Origin: Nitrosopumilus sp.
GTDB taxonomy: Archaea; Thermoproteota; Nitrososphaeria; Nitrososphaerales; Nitrosopumilaceae
Assembly: GCA_965203315.1 (NCBI GenBank)
Contig: OZ241857.1
Span: 1,792,001-1,856,000, forward strand
Reading direction: 5' to 3'
Length of the DNA stretch: 64,000 bases
Of the stretch, positions 12,952 through 58,324 are shown piece after piece; within the stretch, counting starts at the first letter, position 1; every line of letters starts with the position of its first letter. The translations under genes were made by a program, and so were the position numbers. The notes under the pieces were generated by a model that made no database searches, was not told where the DNA came from, and worked only from the letters and a program-made list of their open reading frames with translations.

Positions 12952-12986
12952 AAATACAAACTTTTGATGATAATATCAATAACATG
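12952..12986 (+). repeat. 35-bp site, exact copy of 53265-53299 (S-layer start site without a gene)
   Basis: aaatacaaacttttgatgataatatcaataacatg at both positions. Confidence 0.92.
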
Positions 12987-13200
12987 TATAATTGTACAGG
13001 TTGTACAAGTGCTTGTAAAGTTATCCGACATGACCTTTTACAGTCTATTGGTCTACGTACCTACTTCACATCTCTTGTATCAAGTATCTTGTGAATGAGT
13101 AATATTGTATAATGCAAGAGTCGAGAATGAAGGAGTAGAGATCAGCGTATGTTGTCATTGACACTGTATGTAGATATCACTATGCATTATTATATCATAT

Positions 13201-13218
13201 AAAAAAAGAAAAAAAAAA
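13201..13218 (-). terminator. Oligo-T terminator of left S-layer gene
   Basis: T10-C-T7 run on minus strand just after the stop at 13227; similar run after right copy. Confidence 0.65.
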
Positions 13219-13219
13219 G

Positions 13220-16200
13220 GTTTGAACTAGTTTACAGTTATTGTTGTTGTCTGTTGTGGAGATAGTGCAGTTGGTATAGTCAACGACTCCCATGCAAATA
13301 CGGTGATTGTGTATTCACCGGATGCAGTTGGTATCCACGACTGAGATGGACTAAACGACTGAGATGGTGTTAGTGAACCATCAATCCAAGACAGAGATAC
13401 TGTAACACCATCGCTATCTTGAATTTGTACCAAGTATGCAAATGGTTGGTCTTTGTCTTGTGTGTTTGTCAAATCTGCAGTGATCTGGACTTGTTGATCT
13501 ATTGATACCGTACTGAGTGTTGTACCTGTAGAGTCTACTATTCTCAACGACTCGATCTTTACTCGTTCTAGAGGAGGTACTATTGTTCCTATTATGGTGG
13601 TTGCAGTGATGTCTTCAGAGTCGCCTGTATTGTACGGAGCAGGTAGAGTGTTGTCGCTGTACTTTGCAGTGACTGTGTCTCCTTCTTCTGTGGATAGTTT
13701 GTGACCGCCTGATTGGACAGAGAGTCCAAAGAATACAGTACCTTCAAAGATACCACTTGCTGGTTGAGTCTCTGTTACTGTAAGGGTTATTCCACTAGGT
13801 GCACTAGAAGACCATACTTTGACCTCAAAGTTGTCTGCAGATTCTGGATTCAAGTTCATGTCGGGATCGATTACACGTAGTACGCCTGTAGCTGTAGCAG
13901 GATAACTTGCTTCTAGCCACTGAACTTCACCAATGTTCCAACGGATTAGAGCAGACTTGCGTACAGTCTCGTCGTCAGAGAACTCGAATGATACCTCGAG
14001 TCCGTCGTCGTTGTCTGTTGGTAATAGTCCATCGGTTGGTCCGTTACATCTATCACATGTACGACCTGTGACGTCTTTACCATTATAGCCTGTAGAGTTA
14101 TCATCATCTACGTCATATGAGAATCCTGTCAGTATTACTTCACCTGTAAAGATACCAGTGTTTGTACCTGTCTCTACGAGTTTGTAGTTTTTAATGTCGT
14201 CGGATCTTGTAGCAACACGTACCGGATATGGATCAGCACCAATCTCGTCTACTTGGTTTGTGTTTAGGTTGTGATCAGGAGCTGTTACAGTAATGAATAC
14301 CTTGTCGGTCCAACTGTATACGCTTTGATCTAGTTCTATTGTAGCACCAAAGTTTGATGTGAATACCGTTCTGTCGATATCTTCTGTATTATCACCTACA
14401 TAGTCTGCACCTGATGGTCCATAGTCTGTGTATTCTAGCTTGATCTCTTCGCCTCGTTCTAGTCTGTCGTTGTCTATGGCCTTGGGAACAGATATGACCA
14501 CTTGGAAGATACCTGTGCTAGGACCAGTCTCTCGTAGAGAGCCTGGTTCTGCATCGAATATACCTTCACTCAGATTCTTGGTACCTGCGTCCGAGTCCCA
14601 TTTGATCAGATCAAGTGTATATGTTTCACGTGTACCGCTGTCTAGATCAAGGTCTGGATCGATGAGTGTTACGATCATGTCCGAGCCTATAACGTATACA
14701 GACTTGTCTGTCTGTAGAGCACCGTTTCGTAGATCAAAGGTAGCAGAGTCTGTGACTGTGCGTGGGTTACCAGAAGCATCTGTTGTGTCGTTGTACTGTA
14801 CGGTGAGGATATCACCTTGTAGGATGCATGTACGGCTTGTCGTACCGTCAGATATTGTTCTACTTGGACAGTCACTACCACTTGGTCCATCTATGTAAGA
14901 TAGATCAAAGCTTACTTCAAAGACTCCAGATTCAGGAGATGTCTCTGTTAGAGCACCCAAATTCTTTGGATCACATGTACCAGTATCTCGAGCATTAGTG
15001 TACCTTAACTCTGCCAAGAGATATTCGGTATATTTTGTAGCCTTTTCAGTAGGATCTGTAGCATCAGCATGTGCCTTTTTTGCGGCATCTCGCTTTCGTT
15101 CCAACTGACTAACCTCGTCGTTTGCCTCTGATGTAGTGCCACCTGCATGACCTATTAAACACTCATCACCACTGCGAGAGACTGTTATCTTGACTGGTCC
15201 GTTTCCAGACATGCCTTCGATCTTGTCCTCGCCTGTAGGATTCAAGTTGTAGTCTGGGTCGTTTACTTGAACATAGACTTTAACTGTACCAAGTGGAAGA
15301 TTCGTTCCGGCCATGTCTAGGGCTCTTGAACCAGTTGTTGTACCCTGACCATACGGAACTGGATATACAGTTCTATCTAGCGATACAGAGCCTGTACTTG
15401 CACCAATCGATGCAGAGTCACCAGCTGTGACTATCTGACCAGATGCATCTCTAAAGTCTAGATATGTTACGCCAATATCTTTGCCGCTTGTAGGTGTGTT
15501 AGGGTTTCTCGTGTTTACTGTATCGTCGTCATTAAAGTTGCATACTTGTTTTGGTATAGAAAATGAACCTGTAAAGACTCCTGTACTGGATCCGGTCTCT
15601 TGTAGAGTGAATCCGGTTTTAGCGAGTCCGTTCTGAATGTTATTATCTAGGTCACATGCGCCAGATTTCCATCTCTCACCACCAATGGTTACTTCGAGTA
15701 GCATTCCTAGTGATTTGCCACCTGGTAGTAGAGACTTGTACTTGATACCAGCTACATTGGTTACACTCATGCCTACTTGATCTCTATCTGTGTCATTGTG
15801 GTTACTGTCCATTACTACTGTATAGGTATCAGCACGATCAGGATCTGTATTCAGATCAGAGTCCTCTAGTGTTATTACGACATTGCTGCCTACACTGTAT
15901 GTCTCTGCATTCAGAGATACCACACCACTAGAGGTTGCGATATCTTGTTGATCAGAGACCACAGCCATGTTGCCGTTCGAGTCTATGTCTGCATAGTTTA
16001 CTCGCGCGTCAGAGCCTGTAATGTCCTCAAAGGCGATGAATTTGACTTCATTGCCTGTTGGTGTGATACTATCGAATATGTATGGAGTCTTTGGGTAGTT
16101 GTTGCCTTCCATATACGAACGATCATTCACTATCATATCGAGTTGGTTTATCATGATGTACTCTAGTGTTCCTGTAAAGGTACTAGTGTTCTCACCAGTC

Positions 16201-17044
16201 TCTTCTACCTCGACTCGTATAATCTGATTTGCAACTCTCTCACTTGCTTGTGCACCATCGTCATAGAATCCATACGAGAAGAAATCTGCGACTATGGGAT
16301 ATTCTTTGCCTTCAGTGATAGTAAATGATGGTGTGGCGTGGCCATTTCCGTCTTTGATTATTATTCCCAGTGTGACTTGAGCGCTAGTACCGACCTTTGA
16401 TAGAAATTCAGAACTAGATAGTGAATATTTTAGTTCATTGTTATTTCTATCTTCGACCATAAAGCCGGTTATGTCTCTAAGGCCGGAACGAGTATCATAT
16501 GCTGAGAGTTCACTTTTGCTATTGTCTAACAGTGTTCCAAAGTAAACAACATCTCCTGTACTGTTGTGTATGTTTAGATCAACACGCATGTTGTTTGTAT
16601 CAAAGACGCCAAAGTCATAGTTGAATAGATTTCGCCCCGTAAAGTTGCCTTTATTTGAACGGTCATCGTTAATCGATCCATGTAGATCTTCTAGCGTACC
16701 TAGAGGAATAGCAATCATCCCTCCAATGAAGAAGCCAGATGCTGGTCCCGCAAGTGAAAGTGGTTCGGTATCGCGAACATCATTTGAACCATTCCATGAC
16801 AGTATGCCTCTATGACTATCATCGACTCTAAAATCTAAGTCACGTATGTATGTCCTATCATCTGGATCTATCGGATATTTCTGCCAAGAAGTACCTGGTT
16901 GTGTATATGCATATGCAGAATTGTCTTTACTGTCCATTAGTGTACGTGGGTCACCTGTCATAAATGTCGGAATTCTTGACATTGGGTCAGATACCTTTTG
17001 ATCGTCTTCTGCATCACTGTCTTTGTTTTGATCTGCATCGACTA
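13220..17044 (-). repeat. 3825-bp near-identical inverted repeat of 54507-58331
   Basis: Identical by eye from tagtcgatgcagatcaa to ctagttcaaac, except one V/I change, one short patch and a few 3' SNPs. Confidence 0.92.
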
Positions 17045-18515
17045 TGGTTAGGTCGATCTTTTCGCCAGAGTTCCATGTGCCGTCTGCGATATCGAGGTTT
17101 ACTGTAGCAGAGGTGAGTCGTAGGTTTACTGGCACATTATCATCACCGTATGTAATCTGTGCGTTGGTGTTTCGTGGCGCATCAGACTTTGTCATTATTG
17201 AACCACCATCATCGGCAAATTCAAAGACGCCAGTGTTTGGTCCTGTCTCTTCGAATTTGAGTGATTGTATTGTACCAGAAGTGGCAAACACATGAGTTGG
17301 TCTAGTAAATTCTACTACTGGATCATCAGTAATCTTTAGGAGACAATCATTATCACAACCTAATGCACTAGTAGTTGTTACAAATTTAGTAAACTCGTCA
17401 TCACTATATTCAACATAAATTCTAATATGCTCATCGTCTCTAGTGGTGTCATTCACCATAAAATGCATTATATCTTTAGCAGTAGGATCGATATTCAGCA
17501 CATGGTCCGTGATCGTTGGATATATGTTGGCGCCTCGTGGATAATAGTCACGATCTAGCTCAAGTGAGTGATTTGTAGATTGGTCGTATCTCACGGTTAC
17601 AGTTTGTGGATTTCCAGGCTTGTAATAGACAACTTCTACCTCATCCCCATCATCGAGATCAAGATATTTGACCATATCTTCAGATATCTTTGTATCGTTG
17701 TCATTGTCAGCTCTTGTAAGGGGCAATTCACTCAGATATCTATCCCGATAGTGAGTTTGATTATTATTAGGCGATTGCTCATTTCGAGCCCCTAACCAAA
17801 TATGATCAAATTTAGATGTAAGTTTTGATATATTTGATATCTCTTCTTAAGGTGGGAAATGACGTGTATGATGCACGGGTCTTTGATGGATACCAGCGAG
17901 AATCAGTTGATCACCAGAATATCTTTGCTAGGGACGAAGTGCACATCAACGGAATGGAAGGGTTCTGGGGCTTTACAAAATTAAACATGGTGAAGCATCG
18001 TGGGGTGAGCTCAAAGAAATTCTTACTGTATCTCAAAGAGAGGGAGTGGTGATGCAAGAACCGAGAGTGCGATCTGTTTGATTTATTGATGCAATACACG
18101 CTTAGGGGCTCGAAATGAGCAATCGCCTATTATTAATATCGCCCACAGCGCTGCCATCAGTTATATCACCATCACCGTTACCATCTTTTCCAATATCTGC
18201 AAAATAGCCATACCAAGAACCATCTCCTGCATGTTGCATTTTGAGATCTTTACCATCAACTGTGACTCTAGGCATTCCGTCACCCATATCTGTCCGTAAT
18301 GGATCACTTACAATAACCTCCACATACTGGATACCGCCAAAGGTATTGTCGAATCTAGATCCGTATCCGTTTGGATCAGCAGCTGAGACGTATAGGTTTG
18401 GTGTCGACTGGGCATATACTGGCTCCATGCTGGGTATAGCAAAGGTCAGTCCGCCTGCGACCATTATCATCATTAGTATTAAACTAGTTGTTTTTCGTCC
18501 TATTTCGTTATTCAT
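13227..18515 (-). pseudogene. S-layer protein copy 1, interrupted by a 358-bp IS1595-type element (1640 aa if precisely excised)
   Basis: Fragments 18102-18515 and 13227-17726; removing element plus one TSD gives 4923 nt in frame (..VGDINN-NQTHYRDRYLSELPLTR..); repeated ETG.NTG.F motifs. Confidence 0.9.
17770..18127 (+). mobile_element. Non-autonomous IS1595-family deletion derivative (358 bp)
   Basis: Perfect 26-bp TIRs ggcgattgctcatttcgagcccctaa; 8-bp TSD tattatta (17762-17769, 18128-18135); transposase C-terminal remnant HINGMEGFW...YLKEREW*. Confidence 0.93.
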
Positions 18516-18528
18516 GTTATTAATTTAT

Positions 18529-18550
18529 CCCCCCCCCGTGCCATATAAAG
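18529..18550 (-). promoter_or_regulatory. TATA box (CTTTATAT) followed by G9 tract upstream of S-layer copy 1
   Basis: Minus strand ctttatatggcac-G9-ataaattaataacATG; first T of TATA 34 bp from start. Confidence 0.7.
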
Positions 18551-18592
18551 ACTATGAACAATTCGTTCACTGACGTTTACGTGAGAATTATT

Positions 18593-18769
18593 GGCTCTGT
18601 TCAGTTTACGTGAGTTGAGATCGTGATGAGGTTATCTCAAAGAACGTACAATATGAGACTCAAAACAGTAGCAATTTACGATAGACGGTACAAACCCGTT
18701 TCCATATTTTGCAAAATTTTTCGAGAATTTTGTGCAGAGAATGCCAACTCCCGTCAATTGAACAGAACA
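18593..18769. mobile_element. MITE family A, copy 2 (inverted relative to 8805-8979)
   Basis: Ends ggctctgttca / tgaacagaaca; flanking direct repeat (a)gaattatt at 18584/5-18592 and 18769/70-18777; colinear with reverse complement of copy 1. Confidence 0.82.
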
Positions 18770-20058: not shown

Positions 20059-20059
20059 A

Positions 20060-27638: not shown

Positions 27639-27752
27639 AAAGTATGCTCAAGTCCATCAAGCATTCAATTAGATCACAAGAGTTGATTTGCGTGTGGGGT
27701 ATTCGCGTGGCCTATAATTTAGTCCACTTGCCAGTTATGAGACTAGTCACTT

Positions 27753-27869
27753 GGATCTCTTCGATTTATGTGAGATGATATTTCACAAGGCTTTTTTCCA
27801 ATCTTCGGTTAGAGAATCTTGTAGTGCTTCCGTCATAACCATTCTACCTCACGCAAACCGAAGAGATCC
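27753..27869. mobile_element. MITE family B, copy 2 (117 bp)
   Basis: TIRs ggatctcttcgattt / aaaccgaagagatcc; colinear with reverse complement of 28586-28663. Confidence 0.75.
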
Positions 27870-28585: not shown

Positions 28586-28663
28586 GGATCTCTTTGGTTT
28601 ACGTGTAGAATGGTCACAGAAAAAGCCTTGTAAAATGTCACCCCACACAAATCAAAGAGATCC
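28586..28663. mobile_element. MITE family B, copy 3 (78 bp)
   Basis: TIRs ggatctctttggttt / aaatcaaagagatcc. Confidence 0.75.
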
Positions 28664-38665: not shown

Positions 38666-39738
38666 TTATCCATACGAGATTGATTCTCGTCCCCCATGAG
38701 TTTCTTGGTTCTTTTTTTACGATCTTTAGACAATCGCCCGTTAGACTGTTGCACAACACCAACACTTAATCCCATGTGATCAGCAATCATTTTTAAGATT
38801 CTGTAGTCCTCATTATCTTGTGGTGTAAAAGCATAGTTTTGATTCTTTTTTAAATCATGATTTTTAATTAGTAGATTCACTATCGGTTTTAAATCTAGTT
38901 CTTTAATATTATCATGATGTAATAGTTGAGTAATATTTGATTCATTAGATACAACATAGCTCAATTGTTGATACAAATTTTTTGGATCAATATCCTCAGG
39001 GCCGTACTCAATATTTTTTTTTAGTTTTTTTAGATAGATATTATTACCATTTTGGTCAATTATGTCACTGTTGATTAATACTTCTAGATTTGTATTATAT
39101 GCTCTAACAAACATTAATGCATTATCTACCGGCATTTGACCATTACTAAATATTTTACATAAAACATAAAAAGACATTTTTGGACCTATTATATCAGACT
39201 GTTTTTTTAATAATTTTACGATTAATTGCTTTATTATAGATTCCCGAGCATCCTTTATAAGTGTCTCAAAATTCGGCGTAAAGTCTTTTGCATAGCTTTT
39301 AAGTATTGTATGTTGGGTAGAAATCTCCAACACTTTGCCATAAACCATAATCAATAGATCAGTGATAGATGTTTCCAAGAGTCTTTTTTCTGGGATATCG
39401 TCAAGAATTTTTACTATGCTATCATCTATGGCAGGAATTAGATCTTCAAAATATCTCACAGAGTCATTCAATATCTTTCTGCAACTAATAACTATCGAAG
39501 ACATAAAGGAAGCCTTGTCTCGTGCAAGAACATTTGTGGCCATTTCTGTATGTATTGCATAGCTTGAAACAATTTGTAGTTTAGCCTCTTGAATTGCTAT
39601 AAGAAATTGATTCCATACATCAGTACTAGAATGTGAAAAAAGAATTACCGCTAATCCATCATCTTTGAGTTTACTTGCTATGGCCTTGAATGACTTTTTT
39701 AGCCCATTACCAAAAAACATCTTCGCGTCCTGTACATT

Positions 39739-41271: not shown

Positions 41272-42815
41272 ATTATTAAATCGACCTGGGCTTTCACAAT
41301 AATCTTCATCGAGTGGAACTCTAGATGGGAGTTTGTGATATTCAGAAAGAATCCTATAAACCCATACATAAAAAAATTCTGATATTTCTCCATATTGAAC
41401 GTCATTACCATACGGAGGATCAGTAATTATTAAATCGTATTTTTCATTAGATATTTGTGTGACAGATTCATTTTTACAATTTGCTGTGTAGTTTAGCTTT
41501 GATACAAATCTAATGGATTTATATATAGAATTAATAATATTTGGAATGCTACCACTAATTTTTTCAAATGGATTCGATTCAGCAAAATTATATACAATTC
41601 GTGGTTGTCTCATACTTAAAACACCTCTTTGTAATTCTGCTACAATCGTCCAATGAACTCCAAATCCAGATTGATCTACTCTTTTTGCAAGAAGAAATGA
41701 CAAATATGTTGCAATTATTTCACGATCTGATTTTTTAGATATTTTGGAGCAAACGTTTTTAATATTTTGGAGCATGGTACAAAGTACCAACATTTGACGT
41801 GGATCAAAATATTGATCCCAGGTAGTTATACCATAGTTCCATAAAGCGTTATTTCTGCTATAATTAGCTAAAATATCTTCATTAGGAATAATATTGTTCA
41901 TTTCAAATTCTTTACGTTTTCGCTCAAACATTTTTTTAGCATCTTTGTATTGCTGTTTATCTTCACTTGTAGGCAGAATATATTCTTTGTTTTTTCCAAT
42001 CTGAATCTGTATTGCGATCATTTCACGATCTTTATATTTTTGAATGTCACTTACGACTGCATCATACAATATTGTGTTTGTACATGAGATGCAAACTGCC
42101 TTTCCTAGTTTTTGTGTGTAACTCTTGCCATCATGTTCAGAAATATTATCAACTAATTCTATTTTGAAATCTTTATTTTTAGGAATTATTTTTATTCCAA
42201 GTGTCTTTTTTGGTTTTTTAACAATATACATATGATTTGTGAGTGGAAATCTTTGTTGGCAATAAGGGCAACGTATACACCACGACCAAAGATATACAGT
42301 TGACGATTTTCTAAAAAACCTACTTAAAGATTCTTTTGTATCATCAAGTACAATATTTGCATATTTCTTAAAGTCATCGCAAAGATTTGATTCATACTGT
42401 TCAGGATATACAAGAATAGCTTTTTCTATTTGAGATGCAAGTGGGTTATAATCAGACACTGTGACATCAAACCCCAATTGTACAGCAGGGAACATTAGAT
42501 TTCCAGATCCTCCAAATGGATCTAAAACTTTGATAGATTTAGGATCAATGTTAAGCTTTTGCTTAAAATCAGAAATATTTGGATTGTAATCAAATGGTTT
42601 CTCCTGATCTAAACCTAAAAACTGCTCAACATCGGAAATATTATTAAAACAACAAGAAAGCATAATTGCCCTACCAACTATTAATGGCTTTTTAGTCCAC
42701 CATGCCATCATCTGAGTAATGCTAGGTGCAGTTTGTTTCTCTTTTTTTGATGCATTGCCAACACGATTGAAAAACTCTAGTACGTTTATGTTTGCGTCTT
42801 CGATTACTGCATGCT

Positions 42816-43175
42816 TCAAGCCACATCACTATTAAGTATCTTCCATGCATTAGGCGCTTTCTTATTGGTCAAAAATTGATATGACCAAAAATGGATCTCT
42901 AAACTACTCTCACTTTTAATATGATTAAGAAATTGTATTCCCTGATATTCGTTTTGTGCACTCTTTAGTACCATCATACCGACAAACTTTCGTGCAACAT
43001 CGTCGTCCCAATCATCTTTATTTAGGATCAAATGTTTTTCTGCAATCTTTGCTCTCCACCCAGACACTGAAGCATATTTTATCTTCTTCTTACCAAATAC
43101 ATCATCTACATATACCTGGAGGTTTATTGATTTCTTACTTTTACTTTTTTCAATTGTATGATGATAAGTTCTCAT
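42816..43175 (-). CDS. Small hypothetical protein of the restriction-like operon
   Basis: Translationally coupled between ATPase and methylase; occupies the position of DUF3780 in related systems (inference). Confidence 0.65.
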   Translation of the reverse strand: MRTYHHTIEKSKSKKSINLQVYVDDVFGKKKIKYASVSGWRAKIAEKHLILNKDDWDDDVARKFVGMMVLKSAQNEYQGIQFLNHIKSESSLEIHFWSYQFLTNKKAPNAWKILNSDVA

Positions 43176-45831
43176 TTTTTCACCAAATTATTTTCTCGTA
43201 ATTTGTCAGATATGTCTACAGACGATTCTAGATCTAGTATAGCAGTACATGATGCAATAGAACAGGATTCTAAACATTTTAGTAGACGTTTGGCCAAAGT
43301 AATGTCTTTAAGTTCACTTGTTATAGTAGCAAGTGTGTTATCTTCTAGATGTATATCAACACGTATTTTTCTATGTGTGCAATCAATAAAAAGTAATTTA
43401 TTTAAGGCGTCAAAGACATCGCTAAACGATCCTAAATCTACTGTATACTTGAATGGATGTTCTCTTTCGATTTCATCATTTGGCAGTAATGGTTCCGATG
43501 TAGAATTCTCTGACTTTGTTGTAGTTTTTTGTTTGATAAAAGTTTTTACAAGATTTTTGTGTATTAAATAGCCAGAAAATTCTACTTGCGTATCTCGAGA
43601 GATGGTACCAAGATACCCCCCCCCTCGACATATTCTTCTAATTCACTAGCATATCCAAACGCTCCATTTTTAACTCCATCAGATATTGCTTGTTTGATCG
43701 AACTCATGTTTTCAACAATTCTTTGTCTTTTGTCATATAGAAAACTATTGTAAATGTCTTCCACCTTTTTGTGCGAGTCCACAGATATAGCGTCTTGACT
43801 GAGTTCAGATACCATCTTGCCCTTACTCTTCAAAAACTCTTTCACCATATCTGTAATGGTTTTATGATGTAGATCAGAGTGTGGCATGTCAGAGAGTCTT
43901 GGTTCAGGACTGTCAGGATAACCTATTTGATTATACCCTACAATACATGCGCGAGTGAGGTTACCTTTTGCTTCTTCCTTTTTTATTGTTATATTCTTAT
44001 GAAATGTTTTATCAGCTCGGATCTATTCATCTTTCTCTGCTTTTTTTATGGCAACCACTTCTTTGGCACAGTCTCTAATTTCATCCACTCTATCTTCATC
44101 AGCATATAAAAATACGATCGTATTTTGGTGTCTTCGCGGCGAATTATCACTAGTATGTGCAATAATATCAGATATTCGTGTCTTCATGTTGTTATTTGTC
44201 TCGTAATGAAAAAAATATAATTTTAGATTCTCATCATCGGGAACATTCTCACTCCAGACTACAAGTTTGAATATTCCTTTTGGAGAATTTACGAGCTCGT
44301 GATGTATTTCATAATCAATCTCTGACTGAGTGATATTTTTTGCGTGTTCTGCAATTATGGCATTCTCATTTGCTACATCAACAAAATAATACTGACCTGC
44401 ATTCTCTTTGACATACCAAAAATATTTTCGGATATCTTCACTCAATGCATTATCGACTAGTGATGAGTCAAATCCAGGCTTGCCTATAGATAACTTGATC
44501 TGTTCAGATGTTATTCCAGATTTTTTGTTAGGTATCTGATGTAATGAATAGAGATAAATTGTTCTTGAGATGGATTCCACAATCTTGACGTGTCTATTTT
44601 GATCTAAATTTTTGGCATGTACTAGACAGTCGGTATTTACAATTTTACCAAACTCATTTCTGTCAATCTTTGAGGTAATCTCATCTAGTATTGATTGATC
44701 TTCTAGATTGATGTGTTCGGTAGATAACAGGAGACAGTCTTTCTTGCTTTTATATATGTCATGTAGTAACAGTGCAAGGAACCGTAACGTCCCTCTTGTT
44801 TGATTAAATTTAGAAATGGTTGAAACTCGCTCATACAGTATCTCAATGATCTTCGGATGAAATGGGTATGATCTCTCCAGTTTATTTTGGAAATCCGAGT
44901 CAATTGTCAAACCCTGATCGGAATAATAATCTAAATACTCTTTTATTACTAACTTTTTTTCGTTTTGGTCAATATCTTTGATCAGTCTATGCCTTATGAC
45001 ATCATAAATCTCGTTTTTTAGTACAGGATTGATTATGCTAGTTTGGCGAGCAAGTGATTCTTTCAATCCCTCTACAACTTTATCTGTTTTTGTAATATTT
45101 CCTTTAATACGATCTGTGGTTTCTTTGAATAATGGTTGCTTATCAGTAAGCGTCATTATGAACATACTATTTTTGCTAGAAGATACTGCACTGATTAATT
45201 TGTAAATAAACGACTCGGTAATCTTGGATTTGTTTGTGTCTCCAACCTTTTCTGCAAGAGTCTCAGTGAGGTAGTGAGGTAGTTCATCGATCATGAGTAG
45301 AGTGGGTTCATCAAAGAACGATTTGATAATATTAAGATCAGATATTGGTTTTGTAGATTCATCATACTCTTTAACTAGATCATATTTACCAAGCTTGTCG
45401 GCAATCTCCCCCCACAATGTATTTCTTTTAACATCTCTACCATCAATTGCTACAACACGAATGTTTGGTATTGAATCGATTCCAAGATCTTTATCGAGAT
45501 CGTATTTTTTGCTATACTCAAAACCAATTTTAGGATTTGATAGAACGTGATACAGCAACATCAAAGTATGTGTCTTGCCTCCACCAAAGCCGGTGTCGAC
45601 AACAATTGCAGGTTTGCCCAGAGATCTAGTGACTCTATGCAATACATCTTTAAGAATTGACTTCATCTGTATTGTAAGAAATGTATTGTCGAGAAACTTT
45701 TCGGGATCTTGATATACCGGATCTGCACTCCCAGAGGTCAGATCATGCATCTCGACAGCAAATTTGTGTAGATCTAGGTTTCCTGTCTCAATCTCATCAC
45801 TAAACTTGCAAGTCTCCCAAATATTCTTCAT
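43172..45831 (-). pseudogene. DUF499 AAA+ ATPase with in-frame TAG (44023-44025) and poly-G frameshift (43616-43624)
   Basis: YQDP..F...TF, TGFGGGKTH, TLWGEIA, IDE, SYPFHP, FNQTRG.LR; frame continues after TAG, then shifts at G9 to an ORF ending in ATGA overlap at 43172-43175. Confidence 0.85.
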
Positions 45832-45929
45832 CTATGATACTTCTCCACTTATCAACAAACTCAATTTACCCCTAAAATAACGTTTGCTAAGTTGTTAAAT
45901 TAGCACAGTAGAACATATAGTCACAATAA

Positions 45930-46014
45930 TGCGGGAAGTGGGATTTGAACCCACGAACTCCTAAGAGATAAGGACCTGAACCTTACGCCGTTGACCGGGC
46001 TGGGCGACTCCCGC
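45930..46014 (-). tRNA. tRNA-Leu (CAG)
   Basis: GCGGGAG..TTCCCGC-A acceptor, anticodon arm TAAGG-TT CAG GT-CCTTA, long variable arm, GTTCAAATC. Confidence 0.95.
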
Positions 46015-46055
46015 AGTCTATGTATCATAAACCAAGAATAAGTTTCTTTATTAGA

Positions 46056-46241
46056 TTGGCAGATAGACCAGAGATATTGGAGTTTAAAGAGATATACTGT
46101 ACAAACTGTAAAAAGATTCTAGGCAGATACAATACAAAATTTTACAAGGAAGATAAGATACGAGAGATACTAAACACTACTCACTCCGATCACATCCGTA
46201 GTGGGCACCACATAAACATCCGTAGATACAAGCCGAGCTAG
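46056..46241 (+). CDS. Small putative zinc-binding protein
   Basis: IYCTNCKKILGRYN...H..H..H; TTG start at 46056. Confidence 0.6.
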   Translation: MADRPEILEFKEIYCTNCKKILGRYNTKFYKEDKIREILNTTHSDHIRSGHHINIRRYKPS

Positions 46242-46329
46242 AGATCTAGTATCTCTCTCCCCATGCAGAGTCTGGTAGATCATACTAGAAATTGATTCCA
46301 AATACACGATTGTTCAATGTATGTATTTT

Positions 46330-48405
46330 CTAATTACGCATAGTATTTTCTATAAAGTCAACAATCTTATCCAAGTGACGTAATATTTCATCAATTTCGT
46401 AGTCAGATTTAATATTTTGCTTATAGTCACCAATAGAATTTGTACCTACATTTGAAACATCTTCTAAATTCTCCGTCTCAAGAATATTGTCATTCTTTTT
46501 AACGTTATAACCAACTATTATGTAATTTTTTCTAGCGGTCATACTACAAATTGCGTGTCTTTGGCCGTTGACAAATATGATAAATTTTCCATATACCTTC
46601 CTCATTTCAAATTCTATATCATAATTATAATATTTGGTTTTAATTCTACTTTTAATTGTATTCCATAAGAGCTTAACTTCAGTTTTTTCTAAGTGTTTTT
46701 CTTCAATTGACGCATAAGTGTCGTCAAATGTTTTATCCACAGTTCTAATTGGACGTGGCCATACATTCAATGCAAGATCAATTAGATCGTTAGCTCTTCG
46801 CTTTATACTATTTTGATCCCATTTTGTATATTGAACTAGATCTCTAGAAAGTTTAAAGCTAGAGTCTTTGTATGTGTCTAACTTAATATCAAATTGTTTG
46901 TTACTCAAAGCAGGATTTTTGCCAGTTAATGTAAGGTTGCCGATTGTGTGAAGATATTTATCATGAATTTCTTTATGATCTATACCTAGATACTTTTTCC
47001 ACGGTTCAGTTAATGTTTGTGGCATGATATGTTCAATTTCGATGGTATTCATATTGACCTGTTCTTCATTGTTGTAATTTTCCAATCTCATTAGTGCATA
47101 CTTGCAAATATTTTGTTTTTCATATATGGGTATGTTTCTCAAACTCTCTTTAAATCTGGTATCACTTTGAAATTTATGCATGCCGTCAAGAGATAACAAT
47201 TGTTCTTCTAGACTTTCAAAATATTTTTTGTTTGTAATTTTGGGTACTATTTTTGGTAGTTCTTTATTCAAACCTGCAACGCCATCGCATATAAACTGTC
47301 TAAACATATATGAGTCAATCAATCGAATTATTTTTTTAGTTGTTTCTACATTAATGATTTTTTGATGAAGATCTGCTAAAACTTTTAAAAATATAAAATT
47401 AGGTATACTTGTTTTTTGATCACGCATATATTTCAAAGCATTATTTATCTCTTCAAATTCTTTTACTGCTATATCTAGTGTGCTATTATCAACATCTTTA
47501 AAGCCCAATATTATGCGATAGTATTTTGAATATTCATATATGTTTTTTAGTTCTTCTTTTCTGTCTAATTCTTTTTCTTCTATGTACTTTTTGAATTCTT
47601 CATAAATAGCATTCTGATTTATGTTTGTGTTTGAATGATGTATAATTAAATAAAAGCGTATGAAATCTTCAAAGTGATTTACTTTGTTTTCAGTAAGGGG
47701 TTTTTCCATAGAATACCAATATTTTTCATATAGTTCTTTTTGTGTATCATCATCGTATTGTATCATGATATAACTTTTTATCAAATCTGTTTGCGATAAT
47801 ACTTTTCCTGTGGAGTTAATACTCATAAATATGGCTTGAGGATCTTCATCTTTCTCCACTGTTATAGTTATTAATTTCAGTTTGTTAATACCATCCCACA
47901 ACACATCTATATCTAAATCTTCCTTTTCTAATTGACTAGTAAAAAATTTAAAATTTTTGCTCAGTCGATCAGATTTGAGACTATTGTGATCTAGAATATC
48001 TCTCAGAGGTTTGTTATCTGATAACAAAATTTTATACTTATCGTCACCTTTTACGTTACTATTGAATAACCGCTCTTCAACTTTACTTTTTGTGCAATTT
48101 TTAGCAGATTTTGTATCAAGTATATTATGAATTGCTTTCAAAAGTAGAATTACACTAACGATTCGTTGTTGACCATCAATAATATAGTATTTCGAAATAT
48201 CATCACCTGGCTGTCTAGGTTTTTCAATAATTATGATAGAACCAGTGAAATGAGATTTTCTATCTTTATTTTTTCCAATCGCAACAATATCGTCAAATAA
48301 TTGTTTGCAGTGTTTAGCCTCCCACGTATATTGACGCTGATAGTAAGGCGTGATAAATTGATTGTTTGGTAATATCTTTAATAAAAATTCATCCTTCGGA
48401 TTCAT
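46330..48405 (-). CDS. GmrSD-like type IV restriction endonuclease (DUF262 + DUF1524/HNH) with C-terminal extension
   Basis: P.YQR.Y.W, IIDGQQR, F..IN.TG..L..DL, IEHIMPQ, IGNLTL...N..LSNK; AT-rich. Confidence 0.9.
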   Translation of the reverse strand: MNPKDEFLLKILPNNQFITPYYQRQYTWEAKHCKQLFDDIVAIGKNKDRKSHFTGSIIIIEKPRQPGDDISKYYIIDGQQRIVSVILLLKAIHNILDTKSAKNCTKSKVEERLFNSNVKGDDKYKILLSDNKPLRDILDHNSLKSDRLSKNFKFFTSQLEKEDLDIDVLWDGINKLKLITITVEKDEDPQAIFMSINSTGKVLSQTDLIKSYIMIQYDDDTQKELYEKYWYSMEKPLTENKVNHFEDFIRFYLIIHHSNTNINQNAIYEEFKKYIEEKELDRKEELKNIYEYSKYYRIILGFKDVDNSTLDIAVKEFEEINNALKYMRDQKTSIPNFIFLKVLADLHQKIINVETTKKIIRLIDSYMFRQFICDGVAGLNKELPKIVPKITNKKYFESLEEQLLSLDGMHKFQSDTRFKESLRNIPIYEKQNICKYALMRLENYNNEEQVNMNTIEIEHIMPQTLTEPWKKYLGIDHKEIHDKYLHTIGNLTLTGKNPALSNKQFDIKLDTYKDSSFKLSRDLVQYTKWDQNSIKRRANDLIDLALNVWPRPIRTVDKTFDDTYASIEEKHLEKTEVKLLWNTIKSRIKTKYYNYDIEFEMRKVYGKFIIFVNGQRHAICSMTARKNYIIVGYNVKKNDNILETENLEDVSNVGTNSIGDYKQNIKSDYEIDEILRHLDKIVDFIENTMRN

Positions 48406-52232: not shown

Positions 52233-52238
52233 TCTCAT

Positions 52239-52940: not shown

Positions 52941-53264
52941 TGTGTTTGGGATATACTTGCAGTCTAATTTAATATTAGTGTAGAGAGGTCATTCTCGTAA
53001 AATACAAGAGAACTAGAAACCATTGATTAGACGGTTCCCACTAGTCACTAACTGAGATAAATAAAACAAACAATCACTACAGTTTGCCCAAATGTCTATT
53101 TCAGCAGGCTATCATATCTTCTTTTGGTGGTGGCTCTGGCTCGCCTAACGATTTTTAATGTATTCTAGTATAATTTCTAGAAAAACAATTGTGGTAATTC
53201 GATCGCAATGATCAAAGGGATCATGTCAGATATCATGTTTAGAGGCTCAAAGCAATTAACTCCA

Positions 53265-53299
53265 AAATACAAACTTTTGATGATAATATCAATAACATG
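53265..53299 (+). repeat. 35-bp site overlapping the S-layer copy 2 start codon; identical to 12952-12986
   Basis: Exact match; contains TTGAT-gataat-ATCAA inverted repeat and ends in the ATG. Confidence 0.92.
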
Positions 53300-56200
53300 A
53301 ATAACGAAATAGGACGAAAAACAACTAGTTTAATACTAATGACAATAATGGTCGCAGGTGGACTGACCTTTGCTATACCAAGCATGGAACCAGTCTATGC
53401 CCAGTCGACACCAAACTTATACGTCTCAGCTGCTGATCCAAACGGATACGGAACTAGATTCGACAACACCTTTGGTGGTCTACAAGTTGTCGAAGTCATT
53501 GTAAATGATCCGTTACTAACTGATGAGAATGATGCTATGCCTCGTGTCACAATAAACGATGACGTAAAACTCAACATGACACAAGCTGGTGATGGCGCTT
53601 GGTATGGATACTTTGCAGATAAAGGACGTGATGGTAACGGTGATGGCGATGACACGGACCTTACTAGCGGATATTTCATCACTGCCGCAACTGTACAACT
53701 AGCACTAGATGGTGAAGTTAATTATGATGGCCTATATGGTAGCAGTGAAGACTCTGCGCGTTACACAGGTGTGGGTGGTTTCACAGACGATAACTTGGTC
53801 AATAATTCTCCCTCAAAGCGAGGTTCAACAGCTAAAATACTATCTGATGATGGTAATCAAATAAAGTATCTTGATCTTGATGATGGTGATGATGTAAAGA
53901 TCGTATACCAAAAGGCAGGAAACCCACAAACTGTAACCTTGACATATGACAAATCAAAGAACAATGGAATTGAACTTGACAGAAACTCGTACGCAAGAGA
54001 CGCAAATGTGTACATTACTCTCATAGATCACGTACTAAACGTAGACCCAACCTCTAAAGACGTTTGGCAGTTCTTTCTTGATGTAAATTCGCCTTCTGCA
54101 CCCGGAGCTGGTACTTTTCCAGATGACAGAGTAATATTGGCAACTCGTAATCTAAGTGGCGGTACTAATGGTTGGACACATGCTCAACTTGGTTGTGATG
54201 ATAACGACTGTATGTTGTCGATACCAAATGATAGCATACTCCGACTAGACAATGACGATGACGCTACAAACAATCCCAATAATATTACCTTTGAAGAAAC
54301 TGGACCAAACACTGGTGTATTTGAGATAAGAGACAATGATGGCGATACATCAATAATGACTGATGATAATGCACCAAGAGGACAAAATAGTCTTATCACT
54401 TATTCTGGTAACAATGTAGCCGTAAACCTACGACTAACTACTGCTACTGTAGATCTAGATGTATCCGACGGTACATGGAACTCGGGTGAAAAGATAGATC
54501 TGGCAGTAGTCGATGCAGATCAAAACAAAGACAGTGATGCAGAAGACGATCAAAAGGTATCTGACCCAATGTCAAGAATTCCGACATTTATGACAGGTGA
54601 CCCACGTACACTAATGGACAGTAAAGACAATTCTGCATATGCATATACACAACCAGGTACTTCTTGGCAGAAATATCCGATAGATCCAGATGATAGGACA
54701 TACATACGTGACTTAGATTTTAGAGTCGATGATAGTCATAGAGGCATACTGTCATGGAATGGTTCAAATGATGTTCGCGATACCGAACCACTTTCACTTG
54801 CGGGACCAGCATCTGGCTTCTTCATTGGAGGGATGATTGCTATTCCTCTAGGTACGCTAGAAGATCTACATGGATCGATTAACGATGACCGTTCAAATAA
54901 AGGCAACTTTACGGGGCGAAATCTATTCAACTATGACTTTGGCGTCTTTGATACAAACAACATGCGTGTTGATCTAAACATACACAACAGTACAGGAGAT
55001 GTTGTTTACTTTGGAACACTGTTAGACAATAGCAAAAGTGAACTCTCAGCATATGATACTCGTTCCGGCCTTAGAGACATAACCGGCTTTATGGTCGAAG
55101 ATAGAAATAACAATGAACTAAAATATTCACTATCTAGTTCTGAATTTCTATCAAAGGTCGGTACTAGCGCTCAAGTCACACTGGGAATAATAATCAAAGA
55201 CGGAAATGGCCACGCCACACCATCATTTACTATCACTGAAGGCAAAGAATATCCCATAGTCGCAGATTTCTTCTCGTATGGATTCTATGACGATGGTGCA
55301 CAAGCAAGTGAGAGAGTTGCAAATCAGATTATACGAGTCGAGGTAGAAGAGACTGGTGAGAACACTAGTACCTTTACAGGAACACTAGAGTACATCATGA
55401 TAAACCAACTCGATATGATAGTGAATGATCGTTCGTATATGGAAGGCAACAACTACCCAAAGACTCCATACATATTCGATAGTATCACACCAACAGGCAA
55501 TGAAGTCAAATTCATCGCCTTTGAGGACATTACAGGCTCTGACGCGCGAGTAAACTATGCAGACATAGACTCGAACGGCAACATGGCTGTGGTCTCTGAT
55601 CAACAAGATATCGCAACCTCTAGTGGTGTGGTATCTCTGAATGCAGAGACATACAGTGTAGGCAGCAATGTCGTAATAACACTAGAGGACTCTGATCTGA
55701 ATACAGATCCTGATCGTGCTGATACCTATACAGTAGTAATGGACAGTAACCACAATGACACAGATAGAGATCAAGTAGGCATGAGTGTAACCAATGTAGC
55801 TGGTATCAAGTACAAGTCTCTACTACCAGGTGGCAAATCACTAGGAATGCTACTCGAAGTAACCATTGGTGGTGAGAGATGGAAATCTGGCGCATGTGAC
55901 CTAGATAATAACATTCAGAACGGACTCGCTAAAACCGGATTCACTCTACAAGAGACCGGATCCAGTACAGGAGTCTTTACAGGTTCATTTTCTATACCAA
56001 AACAAGTATGCAACTTTAATGACGACGATACAGTAAACACGAGAAACCCTAACACACCTACAAGCGGCAAAGATATTGGCGTAACATATCTAGACTTTAG
56101 AGATGCATCTGGTCAGATAGTCACAGCTGGTGACTCTGCATCGATTGGTGCAAGTACAGGCTCTGTATCGCTAGATAGAACTGTATATCCAGTTCCGTAT

Positions 56201-58324
56201 GGTCAGGGTACAACAACTGGTTCAAGAGCCCTAGACATGGCCGGAACGAATCTTCCACTTGGTACAGTTAAAATCTATGTTCAAGTAAACGACCCAGACT
56301 ACAACTTGAATCCTACAGGCGAGGACAAGATCGAAGGCATGTCTGGAAACGGACCAGTCAAGATAACAGTCTCTCGCAGTGGTGATGAGTGTTTAATAGG
56401 TCATGCAGGTGGCACTACATCAGAGGCAAACGACGAGGTTAGTCAGTTGGAACGAAAGCGAGATGCCGCAAAAAAGGCACATGCTGATGCTACAGATCCT
56501 ACTGAAAAGGCTACAAAATATACCGAATATCTCTTGGCAGAGTTAAGGTACACTAATGCTCGAGATACTGGTACATGTGATCCAAAGAATTTGGGTGCTC
56601 TAACAGAGACATCTCCTGAATCTGGAGTCTTTGAAGTAAGCTTTGATCTATCTTACATAGATGGACCAAGTGGTAGTGACTGTCCAAGTAGAACAATATC
56701 TGACGGTACGACAAGCCGTACATGCATCCTACAAGGTGATATCCTCACCGTACAGTACAACGACACAACAGATGCTTCTGGTAACCCACGCACAGTCACA
56801 GACTCTGCTACCTTTGATCTACGAAACGGTGCTCTACAGACAGACAAGTCTGTATACGTTATAGGCTCGGACATGATCGTAACACTCATCGATCCAGACC
56901 TTGATCTAGACAGCGGTACACGTGAAACATATACACTTGATCTGATCAAATGGGACTCGGACGCAGGTACCAAGAATCTGAGTGAAGGTATATTCGATGC
57001 AGAACCAGGCTCTCTACGAGAGACTGGTCCTAGCACAGGTATCTTCCAAGTGGTCATATCTGTTCCCAAGGCCATAGACAACGACAGACTAGAACGAGGC
57101 GAAGAGATCAAGCTAGAATACACAGACTATGGACCATCAGGTGCAGACTATGTAGGTGATAATACAGAAGATATCGACAGAACGGTATTCACATCAAACT
57201 TTGGTGCTACAATAGAACTAGATCAAAGCGTATACAGTTGGACCGACAAGGTATTCATTACTGTAACAGCTCCTGATCACAACCTAAACACAAACCAAGT
57301 AGACGAGATTGGTGCTGATCCATATCCGGTACGTGTTGCTACAAGATCCGACGACATTAAAAACTACAAACTCGTAGAGACAGGTACAAACACTGGTATC
57401 TTTACAGGTGAAGTAATACTGACAGGATTCTCGTACGACGCAGACGGTGATGATTCCACAGGAGAAAACGGTAAAGACGTCACAGGTCGTACATGTGATA
57501 GATGTAACGGACCAACCGATGGACTATTACCAACAGACAACGACGACGGACTCGAGGTATCATTCGAGTTCTCTGACGACGAGACTGTACGCAAGTCTGC
57601 TCTAATCCGTTGGAACATTGGTGAAGTTCAGTGGCTAGAAGCAAGTTATCCTGCTACAGCTACAGGCGTACTACGTGTAATCGATCCCGACATGAACTTG
57701 AATCCAGAATCTGCAGACAACTTTGAGGTCAAAGTATGGTCTTCTAGTGCACCTAGTGGAATAACCCTTACAGTAACAGAGACTCAACCAGCAAGTGGTA
57801 TCTTTGAAGGTACTGTATTCTTTGGACTCTCTGTCCAATCAGGCGGTCACAAACTATCCACAGAAGAAGGAGACACAGTCACTGCAAAGTACAGCGACAA
57901 CACTCTACCTGCTCCGTACAATACAGGCGACTCTGAAGACATCACTGCAACCACCATAATAGGAACAATAGTACCTCCTCTAGAACGAGTAAAGATCGAG
58001 TCGTTGAGAATAGTAGACTCTACAGGTACAACACTCAGTACGGTATCAATAGATCAACAAGTCCAGATCACTGCAGATTTGACAAACACACAAGACAAAG
58101 ACCAACCATTTGCATACTTGGTACAAATTCAAGATAGCGATGGCGTTACAGTATCTCTGTCTTGGATTGATGGTTCATTGACACCATCTCAATCGCTTAG
58201 TCCATCTCAGTCTTGGATACCAACTGCATCCGGTGAATACACAATTACCGTATTTGCGTGGGAGTCGTTGACTATACCAACTGCACTATCTCCACAACAG
58301 ACAACAACAATAACTGTAAACTAG
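53297..58324 (+). CDS. S-layer protein copy 2, intact (1675 aa)
   Basis: Nitrosopumilus-type N-terminus MNNEIGRKTTSLILMTIMVAGGLTFAIP, repeated ETG.NTG.F.G motifs, C-terminal Q.FAYLVQIQD..G..LSWI.G...F.WES...P.ALS. Confidence 0.93.
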   Translation: MNNEIGRKTTSLILMTIMVAGGLTFAIPSMEPVYAQSTPNLYVSAADPNGYGTRFDNTFGGLQVVEVIVNDPLLTDENDAMPRVTINDDVKLNMTQAGDGAWYGYFADKGRDGNGDGDDTDLTSGYFITAATVQLALDGEVNYDGLYGSSEDSARYTGVGGFTDDNLVNNSPSKRGSTAKILSDDGNQIKYLDLDDGDDVKIVYQKAGNPQTVTLTYDKSKNNGIELDRNSYARDANVYITLIDHVLNVDPTSKDVWQFFLDVNSPSAPGAGTFPDDRVILATRNLSGGTNGWTHAQLGCDDNDCMLSIPNDSILRLDNDDDATNNPNNITFEETGPNTGVFEIRDNDGDTSIMTDDNAPRGQNSLITYSGNNVAVNLRLTTATVDLDVSDGTWNSGEKIDLAVVDADQNKDSDAEDDQKVSDPMSRIPTFMTGDPRTLMDSKDNSAYAYTQPGTSWQKYPIDPDDRTYIRDLDFRVDDSHRGILSWNGSNDVRDTEPLSLAGPASGFFIGGMIAIPLGTLEDLHGSINDDRSNKGNFTGRNLFNYDFGVFDTNNMRVDLNIHNSTGDVVYFGTLLDNSKSELSAYDTRSGLRDITGFMVEDRNNNELKYSLSSSEFLSKVGTSAQVTLGIIIKDGNGHATPSFTITEGKEYPIVADFFSYGFYDDGAQASERVANQIIRVEVEETGENTSTFTGTLEYIMINQLDMIVNDRSYMEGNNYPKTPYIFDSITPTGNEVKFIAFEDITGSDARVNYADIDSNGNMAVVSDQQDIATSSGVVSLNAETYSVGSNVVITLEDSDLNTDPDRADTYTVVMDSNHNDTDRDQVGMSVTNVAGIKYKSLLPGGKSLGMLLEVTIGGERWKSGACDLDNNIQNGLAKTGFTLQETGSSTGVFTGSFSIPKQVCNFNDDDTVNTRNPNTPTSGKDIGVTYLDFRDASGQIVTAGDSASIGASTGSVSLDRTVYPVPYGQGTTTGSRALDMAGTNLPLGTVKIYVQVNDPDYNLNPTGEDKIEGMSGNGPVKITVSRSGDECLIGHAGGTTSEANDEVSQLERKRDAAKKAHADATDPTEKATKYTEYLLAELRYTNARDTGTCDPKNLGALTETSPESGVFEVSFDLSYIDGPSGSDCPSRTISDGTTSRTCILQGDILTVQYNDTTDASGNPRTVTDSATFDLRNGALQTDKSVYVIGSDMIVTLIDPDLDLDSGTRETYTLDLIKWDSDAGTKNLSEGIFDAEPGSLRETGPSTGIFQVVISVPKAIDNDRLERGEEIKLEYTDYGPSGADYVGDNTEDIDRTVFTSNFGATIELDQSVYSWTDKVFITVTAPDHNLNTNQVDEIGADPYPVRVATRSDDIKNYKLVETGTNTGIFTGEVILTGFSYDADGDDSTGENGKDVTGRTCDRCNGPTDGLLPTDNDDGLEVSFEFSDDETVRKSALIRWNIGEVQWLEASYPATATGVLRVIDPDMNLNPESADNFEVKVWSSSAPSGITLTVTETQPASGIFEGTVFFGLSVQSGGHKLSTEEGDTVTAKYSDNTLPAPYNTGDSEDITATTIIGTIVPPLERVKIESLRIVDSTGTTLSTVSIDQQVQITADLTNTQDKDQPFAYLVQIQDSDGVTVSLSWIDGSLTPSQSLSPSQSWIPTASGEYTITVFAWESLTIPTALSPQQTTTITVN

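Follow-up and report, generated by a model that had tools for sequence, protein, structure and literature searches.

Ammonia-oxidizing archaea rank with the most abundant microbes on Earth, and their surface (S-) layer is both the only component of their cell wall and the first point of contact for viruses. Can such a coat be changed by inversion of DNA? The question is raised by a stretch of 64,000 nucleotides from Nitrosopumilus sp. (assembly GCA_965203315.1, contig OZ241857.1, positions 1,792,001 to 1,856,000; hereafter the window), which carries two copies of an S-layer protein gene and three sites, A, B and C, with a common core sequence. According to the original prediction, one promoter at B serves two variant genes, B–C inversion selects the N-terminal variant that is expressed, and A–B inversion turns copy 1 off. 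The analysis of the whole genome reported here upholds part of this scheme, notably that DNA inversion across the common start region has moved promoters between gene copies: both orientations occur among the S-layer loci, and A and C appear to be partner arms of a single cassette. Repeated past inversion of S-layer cassettes in this lineage is well supported, and we hold it with high confidence. Cassettes that flip in front of fixed promoters, together with the history of the window reconstructed below, constitute in our opinion the best explanation as a whole, towards which we lean somewhat more than away from it.

Probable invertible S-layer cassettes

Twenty sites with the start core were tabulated, the core being followed either by the start of an S-layer gene ('G') or by a second conserved sequence ('S'), which lies about 270 bp beyond the stop codon on the other strand. 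At seven loci, the gene is enclosed in a cassette of ~5.2 kb bounded by inverted copies of the leader, with arms of 25–37 bp. Each of these canonical cassettes has one arm with a palindrome and a TATA box on its outer side ('P') and another arm with neither ('N'). The promoter joins the gene start in three of the seven cassettes (c4 at 826 kb of contig C1, c8 at 36 kb and c9 at 50 kb of contig C5) and the 3′ side, S, in the remaining four (c1, c2, c3 and c5, at 12.6, 206, 793 and 858 kb of C1, respectively). This pattern of one promoter per locus, facing either the gene or its tail, is the trace that an invertible segment with the promoter outside would leave. Recombination between the arms would flip the ~5-kb cassette, and the fixed promoter would read the gene (ON) or its 3′ side (OFF).

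The canonical cassettes have a common 3′ tail that consists of a terminator, ~200 conserved nucleotides, a palindrome and the arm. The palindrome just inside the 3′ arm (12992–13010 in the window, and equivalents) reads TTGTACAACCTGTACAA, or TTGCACAGCCTGTGCAA in c3, and its half-site TTGTACA is similar to that of the promoter palindrome, TTGTTCA. Covariation within this 3′ palindrome was not used as evidence: c3 is the one cassette in which the two sides have both changed, and in c5 and c8 a single side differs.

ON and OFF arrangements are mixed in a tree built from the 3′ 1.5 kb and the tail. One clade unites c5 (OFF) with c8 (ON), with support 100/100; a second, with support 94/99, contains c1 (OFF), c4 (ON), the A end of cassette c6 (OFF; see below) and c9 (ON). 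Because the two states mix within two supported clades, at least two flips seem to have occurred, with gene conversion as a caveat.

An expanded family of mosaic S-layer genes

The genome (2.47 Mb in seven contigs) encodes archaeal AmoA. Copy 2 of the window gene (53297–58324, + strand) is an intact open reading frame (ORF) of 1675 amino acids, similar over its full length to 8c8k_A ('cell surface protein', 1734 amino acids; E = 0, 1154.5 bits, four stretches); the 8C8K entry is the structure from the Nitrosopumilus maritimus S-layer paper (PMC11153153). The genes had thus been named correctly as thaumarchaeal S-layer genes. Pfam gave only a sub-threshold BatD match.

The two variant genes of the original prediction are part of a much larger set. 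There are at least 12 S-layer paralogues in the genome, with 75–100% amino-acid identity, and the conserved gene-start pattern occurs 11 times, against one to three times in those 83 of the 150 other genus genomes that have it. The S-layer gene has expanded here to at least 12 mosaic paralogues from a genus norm of one to three genes. All copies agree almost completely in the signal peptide and in the first ~100 and last ~450 residues. The variation is found in alignment columns 100–1300, as blocks common to differing pairs of copies; for example, copy 2 and the c9 protein are 81–97% identical in the first 400 columns and 16–20% identical in columns 500–700. The C terminus of the N. maritimus S-layer protein (NmSLP) is membrane-proximal (PMC11153153), and for this reason the variable part would lie on the N-terminal, membrane-distal side.

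All eight arm-linked genes tested are intact ORFs of 1591–1675 amino acids, promoter-less ones included, and the five genes that stand behind promoter-less arms in the canonical and window loci are intact in five cases of five. A further paralogue at C1:737731–743067 has an open frame of 1779 amino acids without signal-peptide start, promoter or arms; a Cys-rich, transposase-like ORF lies directly upstream of it, and it is probably a truncated copy.

The leader and the native S-layer promoter

The sequence relations between the three sites were confirmed. A (12952–12986, + strand) and C (53265–53299, + strand) are identical at 35 of 35 bp, the repeat search extending the match to 40 nt at 98%. 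The core AATAACATG of B was read on the minus strand at 18513–18521, and B and C form a perfect 52-bp inverted repeat (18470–18521 and 53291–53342) that goes on as 264 nt at 88% identity. The 9-mer core taken alone is within chance (four matches in the window, 1.48 expected; at least four in seven of 100 shuffles). The long A/C and B/C identities are homology, not chance.

What this leader is can be judged from relatives. In 30 of 30 loci of relatives, the region upstream of the single S-layer gene contains the palindrome TGGACAAnTnGTCCA, TTAGGC, a TATA-like TTAAATAC (or TTTTATAC), ~21 variable nucleotides and CAATAACATG. Site A matches this native layout exactly (TGAACAAGTTGTTCA … GGTTAAATAC …). 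Judged by this comparison, the 35-bp leader is the part of the native S-layer promoter region of the genus that separates the start codon from the TATA box. Archaeal promoter spacing sets the transcript start relative to the TATA box; with the box at positions −34 to −27 relative to the ATG, transcription is predicted to begin only a few nucleotides ahead of this codon and to yield a nearly leaderless mRNA. A literature search on thaumarchaeal transcription start sites or leaderless starts brought up nothing relevant.

At site A, the outer part (12929–12957, + strand) is a canonical P promoter, outside the cassette and fixed, with the palindrome TGAACAAGTTGTTCA at 12929–12943 and the TATA-like TTAAATAC at 12950–12957. 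The inverted-repeat arm follows (12952–12991, + strand), with a dyad TTGAT-GATAAT-ATCAA at 12964–12979 and an ATG at 12984–12986; it is the promoter-side arm of a cassette, c6, and is joined to the 3′ end of that cassette. This S-end, delimited by an alignment of 11 3′ flanks, occupies 12987–13226 (minus strand) and has, in gene sense, a T-rich terminator after the stop codon of copy 1, ~200 nt conserved among cassettes and, next to the arm on its inner side, the palindrome TTGTACAACCTGTACAA. An ORF of 36 codons begins at 12984 on its + strand; coding is not conserved across cassettes, the ORF having 14 codons or being frameshifted in others.

Site C (53260–53304, + strand) is an N arm, the promoter-less partner in c6. 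Here CTCCAAAATACAAAC precedes the same dyad with the same spacer (53277–53292), the ATG at 53297–53299 is joined to copy 2, the palindrome is missing, and CAAAATAC occupies the place of TTAAATAC.

Site B (18513–18569, minus strand) carries a promoter variant, P′, with the palindrome TGAACGAATTGTTCA at 18569–18555, the TATA box tttatatg at 18549–18542, a run of nine G at 18537–18529 and then ATAAATTAATAACATG. P′ agrees with P in the palindrome and in the distance from TATA box to ATG. With the arms it has only an 11-nt core in common; the dyad is absent, and GCACG9ATAAATT is found in the dyad region. A second P′, with a poly-G of 11 instead of nine, lies at C6:25054–25112 before another paralogue and has no repeats. 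The difference in poly-G length may be real or a homopolymer sequencing error.

These observations alter the assignment of roles. B had been credited with the only clear TATA box and A had been taken for a TATA-less leader; A has both TTAAATAC and the palindrome of the conserved S-layer promoter of the genus, and the promoter-less arm is C. The notion of one promoter gives way as well, since the genome has at least ten copies: the promoter palindrome, with up to two mismatches, has 17 genome matches, 12 of them adjoining arms, to which the P′ copy on C6 adds one.

Dyads and matched spacers in the arms

Each arm contains a dyad TTGAT-N6-ATCAA, which in some arms is extended to TTATTGAT-N6-ATCAATAA. 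The sequence TTGATGNNAATATCAA occurs 12 times in the genome, every time in a cassette arm. The right half of the dyad corresponds to the ancestral leader; the left half, and with it the TTGAT dyad, is absent from all 30 promoters of the relatives.

The six-nucleotide spacer is the same in both arms of c1 (GTGAAT), c2 (GGAAAT), c3 (GAGAAT), c5 (AGAAAC) and c8 (GAGATT), and window sites A and C share GATAAT, which is found nowhere else. The c4 P arm has its spacer TGGAAT in common with an arm N2 at C5:17724, the c4 N arm shares GGTAAT with the c9 N arm, and the c9 P arm (GGGAAT) is one nucleotide off the c9 N arm. Same-locus spacers are therefore identical in five of the seven cassettes and differ between loci, a result reached by 84 of 200,000 permutations, which, the loci being related, is no formal probability. 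Over the inner 28 nt there are no mismatches between A and C; the c4 P arm and N2 are also a perfect pair, and the other P/N pairs differ at one to eight positions. Whatever the mechanism, the paired arms of a locus have exchanged sequence more than once.

The core site of a tyrosine recombinase consists of two inverted binding elements around a crossover region, in which identity is needed between the partners. Because a dyad with a matched 6-nt spacer has just this layout, a site-specific recombinase is, by analogy, the more likely agent of flipping. The end of a miniature inverted-repeat transposable element (MITE) beside the N arms was considered as a general feature and rejected, as only the c9 N arm matches (17 of 22 positions).

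History of the window

How, then, did the window come to its present arrangement? Site A, a P arm joined to S, is best read as the promoter arm of c6 in the OFF state. Because A and C show no mismatch over the inner 28 nt and have a spacer of their own, they would be the two partner arms of this one cassette, which today lie as direct repeats at a distance of 40 kb from each other. The alignment of 3′ flanks shows that copy 2 and the P′ copy on C6 both lack a 3′ arm; copy 2 keeps the terminator (to about 58364), and the S-end and inverted arm are absent. For this reason, the P′ loci look like fixed, non-invertible expression sites.

In the ancestral state, c6 would have been a normal OFF cassette, with the order P at A, arm, S, then copy 1, arm and the N flank now at C, and P′ followed by copy 2 would have lain, oppositely oriented, at a distance of 35 kb. 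Homologous exchange between the 5′ ends of the two genes, which are identical over at least 52 bp, would have inverted the 35 kb between them (18522–53290) and swapped the upstream regions. Copy 1 would thereby have come to lie behind P′, yet broken by a MITE, and copy 2 would be intact, yet behind a promoter-less arm. The perfect match of A and C, the missing 3′ arm of copy 2 and the repeat-less P′ on C6 make a past B–C inversion the best reading of the present arrangement. The B–C inversion of the original prediction is retained in this sense, as a past event. The A–B inversion fares worse: as A is a canonical promoter, such a flip would give ON, not the OFF state that had been predicted for copy 1.

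Copy 1, which had been counted as one of two variant genes, is split by an insertion at 17762–18135. It consists of an element of 358 bp (17770–18127) with terminal inverted repeats that begin GGCGATTGCTCATTTCGAG (36-nt inverted ends at 94%), flanked by an 8-bp direct duplication TATTATTA (17762–17769 and 18128–18135). The net gain of 366 nt keeps the frame and brings in stop codons. The part of the gene 3′ of the insertion lies at 13227–17761 (minus strand; the listed ORF, 13227–17726, has 1499 amino acids, and the frame is open up to the insertion), and the 5′ part, with the signal peptide and the first ~127 codons, at 18136–18515 (minus strand; the listed ORF, 18102–18515, meets a stop inside the element). 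Copy 1 and copy 2 are 98.8% identical over the 3′ 3955 nt (13188–17138) and 84% identical over the first 372 nt, and have diverged in between.

With its terminal inverted repeats, target-site duplication, many short copies and longer relatives, the insertion is a MITE. An identical copy (100%) is located at C1:503053–503413 and a 99% copy at C1:1251388; the insertion in copy 1 is therefore very recent. There are 55 BLAST pieces of the element genome-wide and nine paired family copies of 355–358 bp (four), 907 bp (four) and 1091 bp (one), most with 7-bp target duplications. Further copies, all with GGCGATTGCTCATTTCGAG ends, are at C1:340485, C1:226602, C1:1326212, C1:1385557, C5:200586 and C5:334496, and the MITE/IS family with these ends can be called active. 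The paralogue behind P′ on C6 (C6:25054–30970) is likewise disrupted close to its 5′ end, in this case by another element of ~905 bp, of which C1:1540987 holds a 98.9% copy; the two repeat-less 'fixed' P′ loci have thus both been knocked out by mobile elements.

Since copy 1 is broken and copy 2 stands behind CTCCAAAATAC without the palindrome, neither window gene is likely to give full-length protein at a high level now. Recombination between A and C would at present delete 40 kb including the genes for DnaK, DnaJ, GrpE and CDC48, and for this reason cassette c6 would effectively be locked.

Is the switch active?

An active, programmed switch in this organism is plausible, if unproven, and we give it slightly the better chance. 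A fuller version may be proposed more tentatively, and we would not give it an even chance: multi-locus phase variation of the S-layer, in which a recombinase, perhaps an island integrase that has been domesticated or else an IS110-type enzyme, acts on the dyad in the leader and turns whole 5-kb genes to face fixed promoters or to face away from them. Cassette-specific 6-nt crossover spacers would keep the flipping of each cassette private, and homologous exchange at the 5′ ends together with segmental gene conversion would reshuffle the variable N-terminal part. The result would be combinatorial coats in a clonal population, a repertoire that presumably helps to counter viruses or grazers.

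The whole genome was searched for three recombinase families; none has a match in the window, in agreement with the original statement that no recombinase is encoded there. The IS110-type family (DEDD, PF01548), which includes known invertases, has 14 matches, 12 full-length and two partial, with ORFs of 348–380 amino acids and mostly 103–104.7 bits. Such an enzyme is a candidate, with nothing tying it to the arms. The places of these matches include C1:232623, 235025, 673792, 791726 and 1216238, and another of them is found ~600 bp beyond the c3 N arm. There are two tyrosine-recombinase-like ORFs (PF00589), of 542 and 545 amino acids, at C1:1467141–1468769 and C1:412064–413701; they were rejected as the specific agent on account of their island-like context and patchy presence in the genus, and are candidates only.

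Several observations weigh against a switch that operates today. Serine recombinases (PF00239) have no match in the genome, and the two tyrosine-recombinase-like ORFs lie in island-like contexts, beside NERD/HerA/NurA and AAA/SNF2 genes; their family is present in ten of 40 other genus genomes, none of which has the cassette 3′-junction pattern. A recombinase or gene family common to the surroundings of the cassettes was looked for, and none lies within 5 kb of the 12 loci. The matched spacers have another possible source, concerted evolution under rare homologous recombination. Three cassettes (c4, c8 and c9) are in the ON arrangement at once, and the promoter-less arms keep an A/T-rich box like CAAAATAC, which bears on the OFF state as it is predicted from sequence. 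The 3′-junction pattern was found in one of 151 genus genomes, the present one, and patterns of arm plus junction gave no match in two metagenome scans. In Logan contigs (k = 31; such contigs drop rare variants) from four of four sequencing runs (two studies, apparently of the same strain), no strand-changing joint was seen at c9, and the contig of the c9 N-arm flank starts at the same base and has the reference junction only. With rare variants dropped from contigs and the two c9 spacers differing by one nucleotide, this is weak evidence against switching; c9 was examined instead of the window because the A and C arms share 35 nt and the gene starts at least 45 nt, so that k = 31 contigs break at A, B and C. 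The assembly itself has a branch: the first 17,739 bases of contigs C1 and C5 are identical, and the two part inside an arm spacer, the arm reached in C5 being the perfect partner of the c4 promoter arm, 800 kb away on C1. Contig C4 (6.7 kb) holds a cassette that has neither arms nor flanks. The branch and the floating C4 may reflect structural heterogeneity in the population or the handling by the assembler of paralogues that are 96% similar, and count as weak evidence of the former.

The only 'skip' joints in the c9 region are two, of 96 and 254 nt, and are unrelated to the arms; loose contig ends at positions 9026, 9037 and 9040 of C5:41300–57000 are junctions of other paralogues. In the variable N-terminal region of c9 (positions 9464–10659 of the same segment), contig depth is 4–6 times that of the flanks in runs X3 and X4 and about 0.8–1.7 times in X1 and X2, the contigs being matched with zero to three mismatches. 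The copy number of this variant segment might differ between samples, contig depth not being equal to copy number.

Competing explanations

The strongest competitor, which we still consider unlikely, is that the arrangement is a relic: a few flips by rare homologous recombination, in a recent burst of duplication and conversion, with no switching today and with ordinary regulation or residual promoter activity at the N arms deciding which paralogues are expressed. The reference junction as the only one in the contigs of all four runs and the failure to find a dedicated recombinase speak for it. The paralogues are also young (their 3′ parts are 31–118 substitutions apart in about 1.8 kb), so that intact silent ORFs need not mean selection, and strong mosaicism indicates that homologous exchange is active in the family. 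Against it, the locus-specific matched spacers in five of the seven cassettes require the paired arms of a locus to have exchanged sequence repeatedly, the dyad is an innovation of this lineage only, at least two independent flips took place among very similar cassettes, and every one of the five genes behind promoter-less arms is intact. In the original scheme, a reversible B–C inversion picks the N-terminal variant read from the one promoter B. That scheme has in its favour the 52-bp inverted repeat with its extension to 264 nt, and the present arrangement is indeed best explained by one B–C inversion; with at least 12 genes, at least ten promoters, a canonical promoter at A that would make A–B inversion an ON event, a site B without the dyad common to all arms and a disrupted copy 1, we regard it as improbable.

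Two explanations would do away with inversion or with the loci themselves. The inverted 3′ leader could be the promoter of a convergent small gene or antisense RNA ('S') and the two upstream flanks could be promoter classes. It is true that an ATG-led short ORF follows every 3′ arm and that the two types of S differ by two synonymous changes and an in-frame indel. S has, however, 36, 14 or 16 codons or is frameshifted, depending on the cassette, and a fixed layout of two genes does not predict that exactly one end per canonical locus has palindrome and TATA box and that this end varies. Near-identical flanks, moreover, join the gene or S according to locus (window C and the c4 N arm differ at two of 28 positions), and this reading is very improbable. 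Least probable of all is an assembly artefact, in which a mis-assembled repeat family would have produced the duplication or the orientations. The common opening of C1 and C5 and the free-floating cassette of C4 could be taken that way, but the window lies inside a 1.94-Mb contig, the copies are set apart by many substitutions that form a consistent mosaic, and independent k-mer contigs of the four runs reproduce several flank–arm–inner junctions exactly: c9 N arm to S in four of four runs, c1 N arm to gene in X3 and X4, c5 N arm to gene in X3, and P′ to gene in X1 and X2.

Other features of the window

The 35-kb segment between B and C contains housekeeping genes (a CDC48-type ATPase, GatB/E-like, DnaJ, DnaK and GrpE) and a defence-type cluster at 35582–48405 (minus strand) with an SNF2 helicase plus NOV_C, DUF1156, DUF499 and a GmrSD-type endonuclease. 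Two further families of inverted repeats were seen, a pair at 8805–8977 and 18596–18768 (173 nt at 84%) and a set at 9220–9273, 27752–27805 and 28620–28663 (44–54 nt at 80–86%). Both carry motifs of the type GTTTACGTGAG / GATTTATGTGAGAT and resemble the ends of another MITE family, and one of these repeats sits directly outside the P′ palindrome of site B. An ORF of 2411 amino acids at 1562–8797 (+ strand) contains five tandem repeats of 687 nt, four of them at 99–100% identity; it has no Pfam match and is probably another large repetitive surface protein. The only Rfam matches are two tRNA genes (RF00005), at 11116–11188 (minus strand, 62.1 bits) and 45930–46014 (minus strand, 44.7 bits).

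Comparison with known systems

One archaeal case belongs to the same S-layer protein family: N. maritimus has NmSLP (Nmar_1547) and a paralogue, Nmar_1201, two copies of 91% identity of which one is dominant, and its S-layer has been proposed to channel ammonium to the membrane (PMC11153153). In the portion of that paper available to us, no repeats or inversion are described (PMC11153153), in contrast to the at least 12 mosaic copies with arms found here. A preprint (10.1101/2023.03.11.532203) counts 12 putative archaeal invertons in 42 archaeal datasets, 36 from Euryarchaeota and six from Crenarchaeota; in its accessible part, no dataset is listed as Thaumarchaeota, and chromosomal invertons are called minimally investigated in Archaea. 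Searches of open-access PMC and bioRxiv found no report of an archaeon that varies its S-layer, by phase or antigenic variation, through DNA inversion. The system described here would be the first surface-coat switch by inversion in archaea; if true, it would add a new domain and phylum to those known for programmed inversion switching, and would make site-specific recombination in archaea, as well as virus–host arms races in nitrifiers, accessible in a tractable system.

Parallels are found in bacteria. In the sap system of Campylobacter fetus, inversion between oppositely oriented S-layer homologues with conserved 5′ ends moves a promoter to another copy. The B–C event, between opposite homologues with 52 bp of perfect 5′ identity, is much alike. 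In sap, however, one promoter on the invertible segment serves all homologues, whereas the present genome has at least ten promoter copies, each fixed outside its own cassette; most loci here would flip the whole gene locally between arms of 25–37 bp, and the host is an archaeon. Lactobacillus acidophilus has the oppositely oriented S-layer genes slpA and slpB, one expressed and one silent, which are swapped by inversion via a short conserved 5′ sequence. The B–C event would work in the same way; there are two genes there and here a family of a dozen with cassette-specific repeats, in which the promoter-linked copy of the window has been inactivated by a MITE.

The local flipping of single genes at short sites near their 5′ ends recalls the multi-gene surface-lipoprotein families of Mycoplasma (vsa in M. 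pulmonis and mpl in M. penetrans), in which site-specific inversions at gene 5′ ends link genes to promoters or unlink them, for each gene separately in mpl. A tyrosine recombinase is encoded nearby in those systems and none is linked to the cassettes here; in mpl a small promoter segment flips, whereas here the 5-kb gene would flip and the promoter would stay in place. Bacterial invertons such as fimS, the capsule promoters of Bacteroides and cwpV of Clostridioides difficile also have inverted repeats flanking the switch of a surface structure and serve bet-hedging. These are mostly a few hundred base pairs long and carry a promoter or an intragenic piece. The design proposed here, if true, would be unusual: what flips is the gene, next to a stationary promoter whose own leader serves as the repeat.

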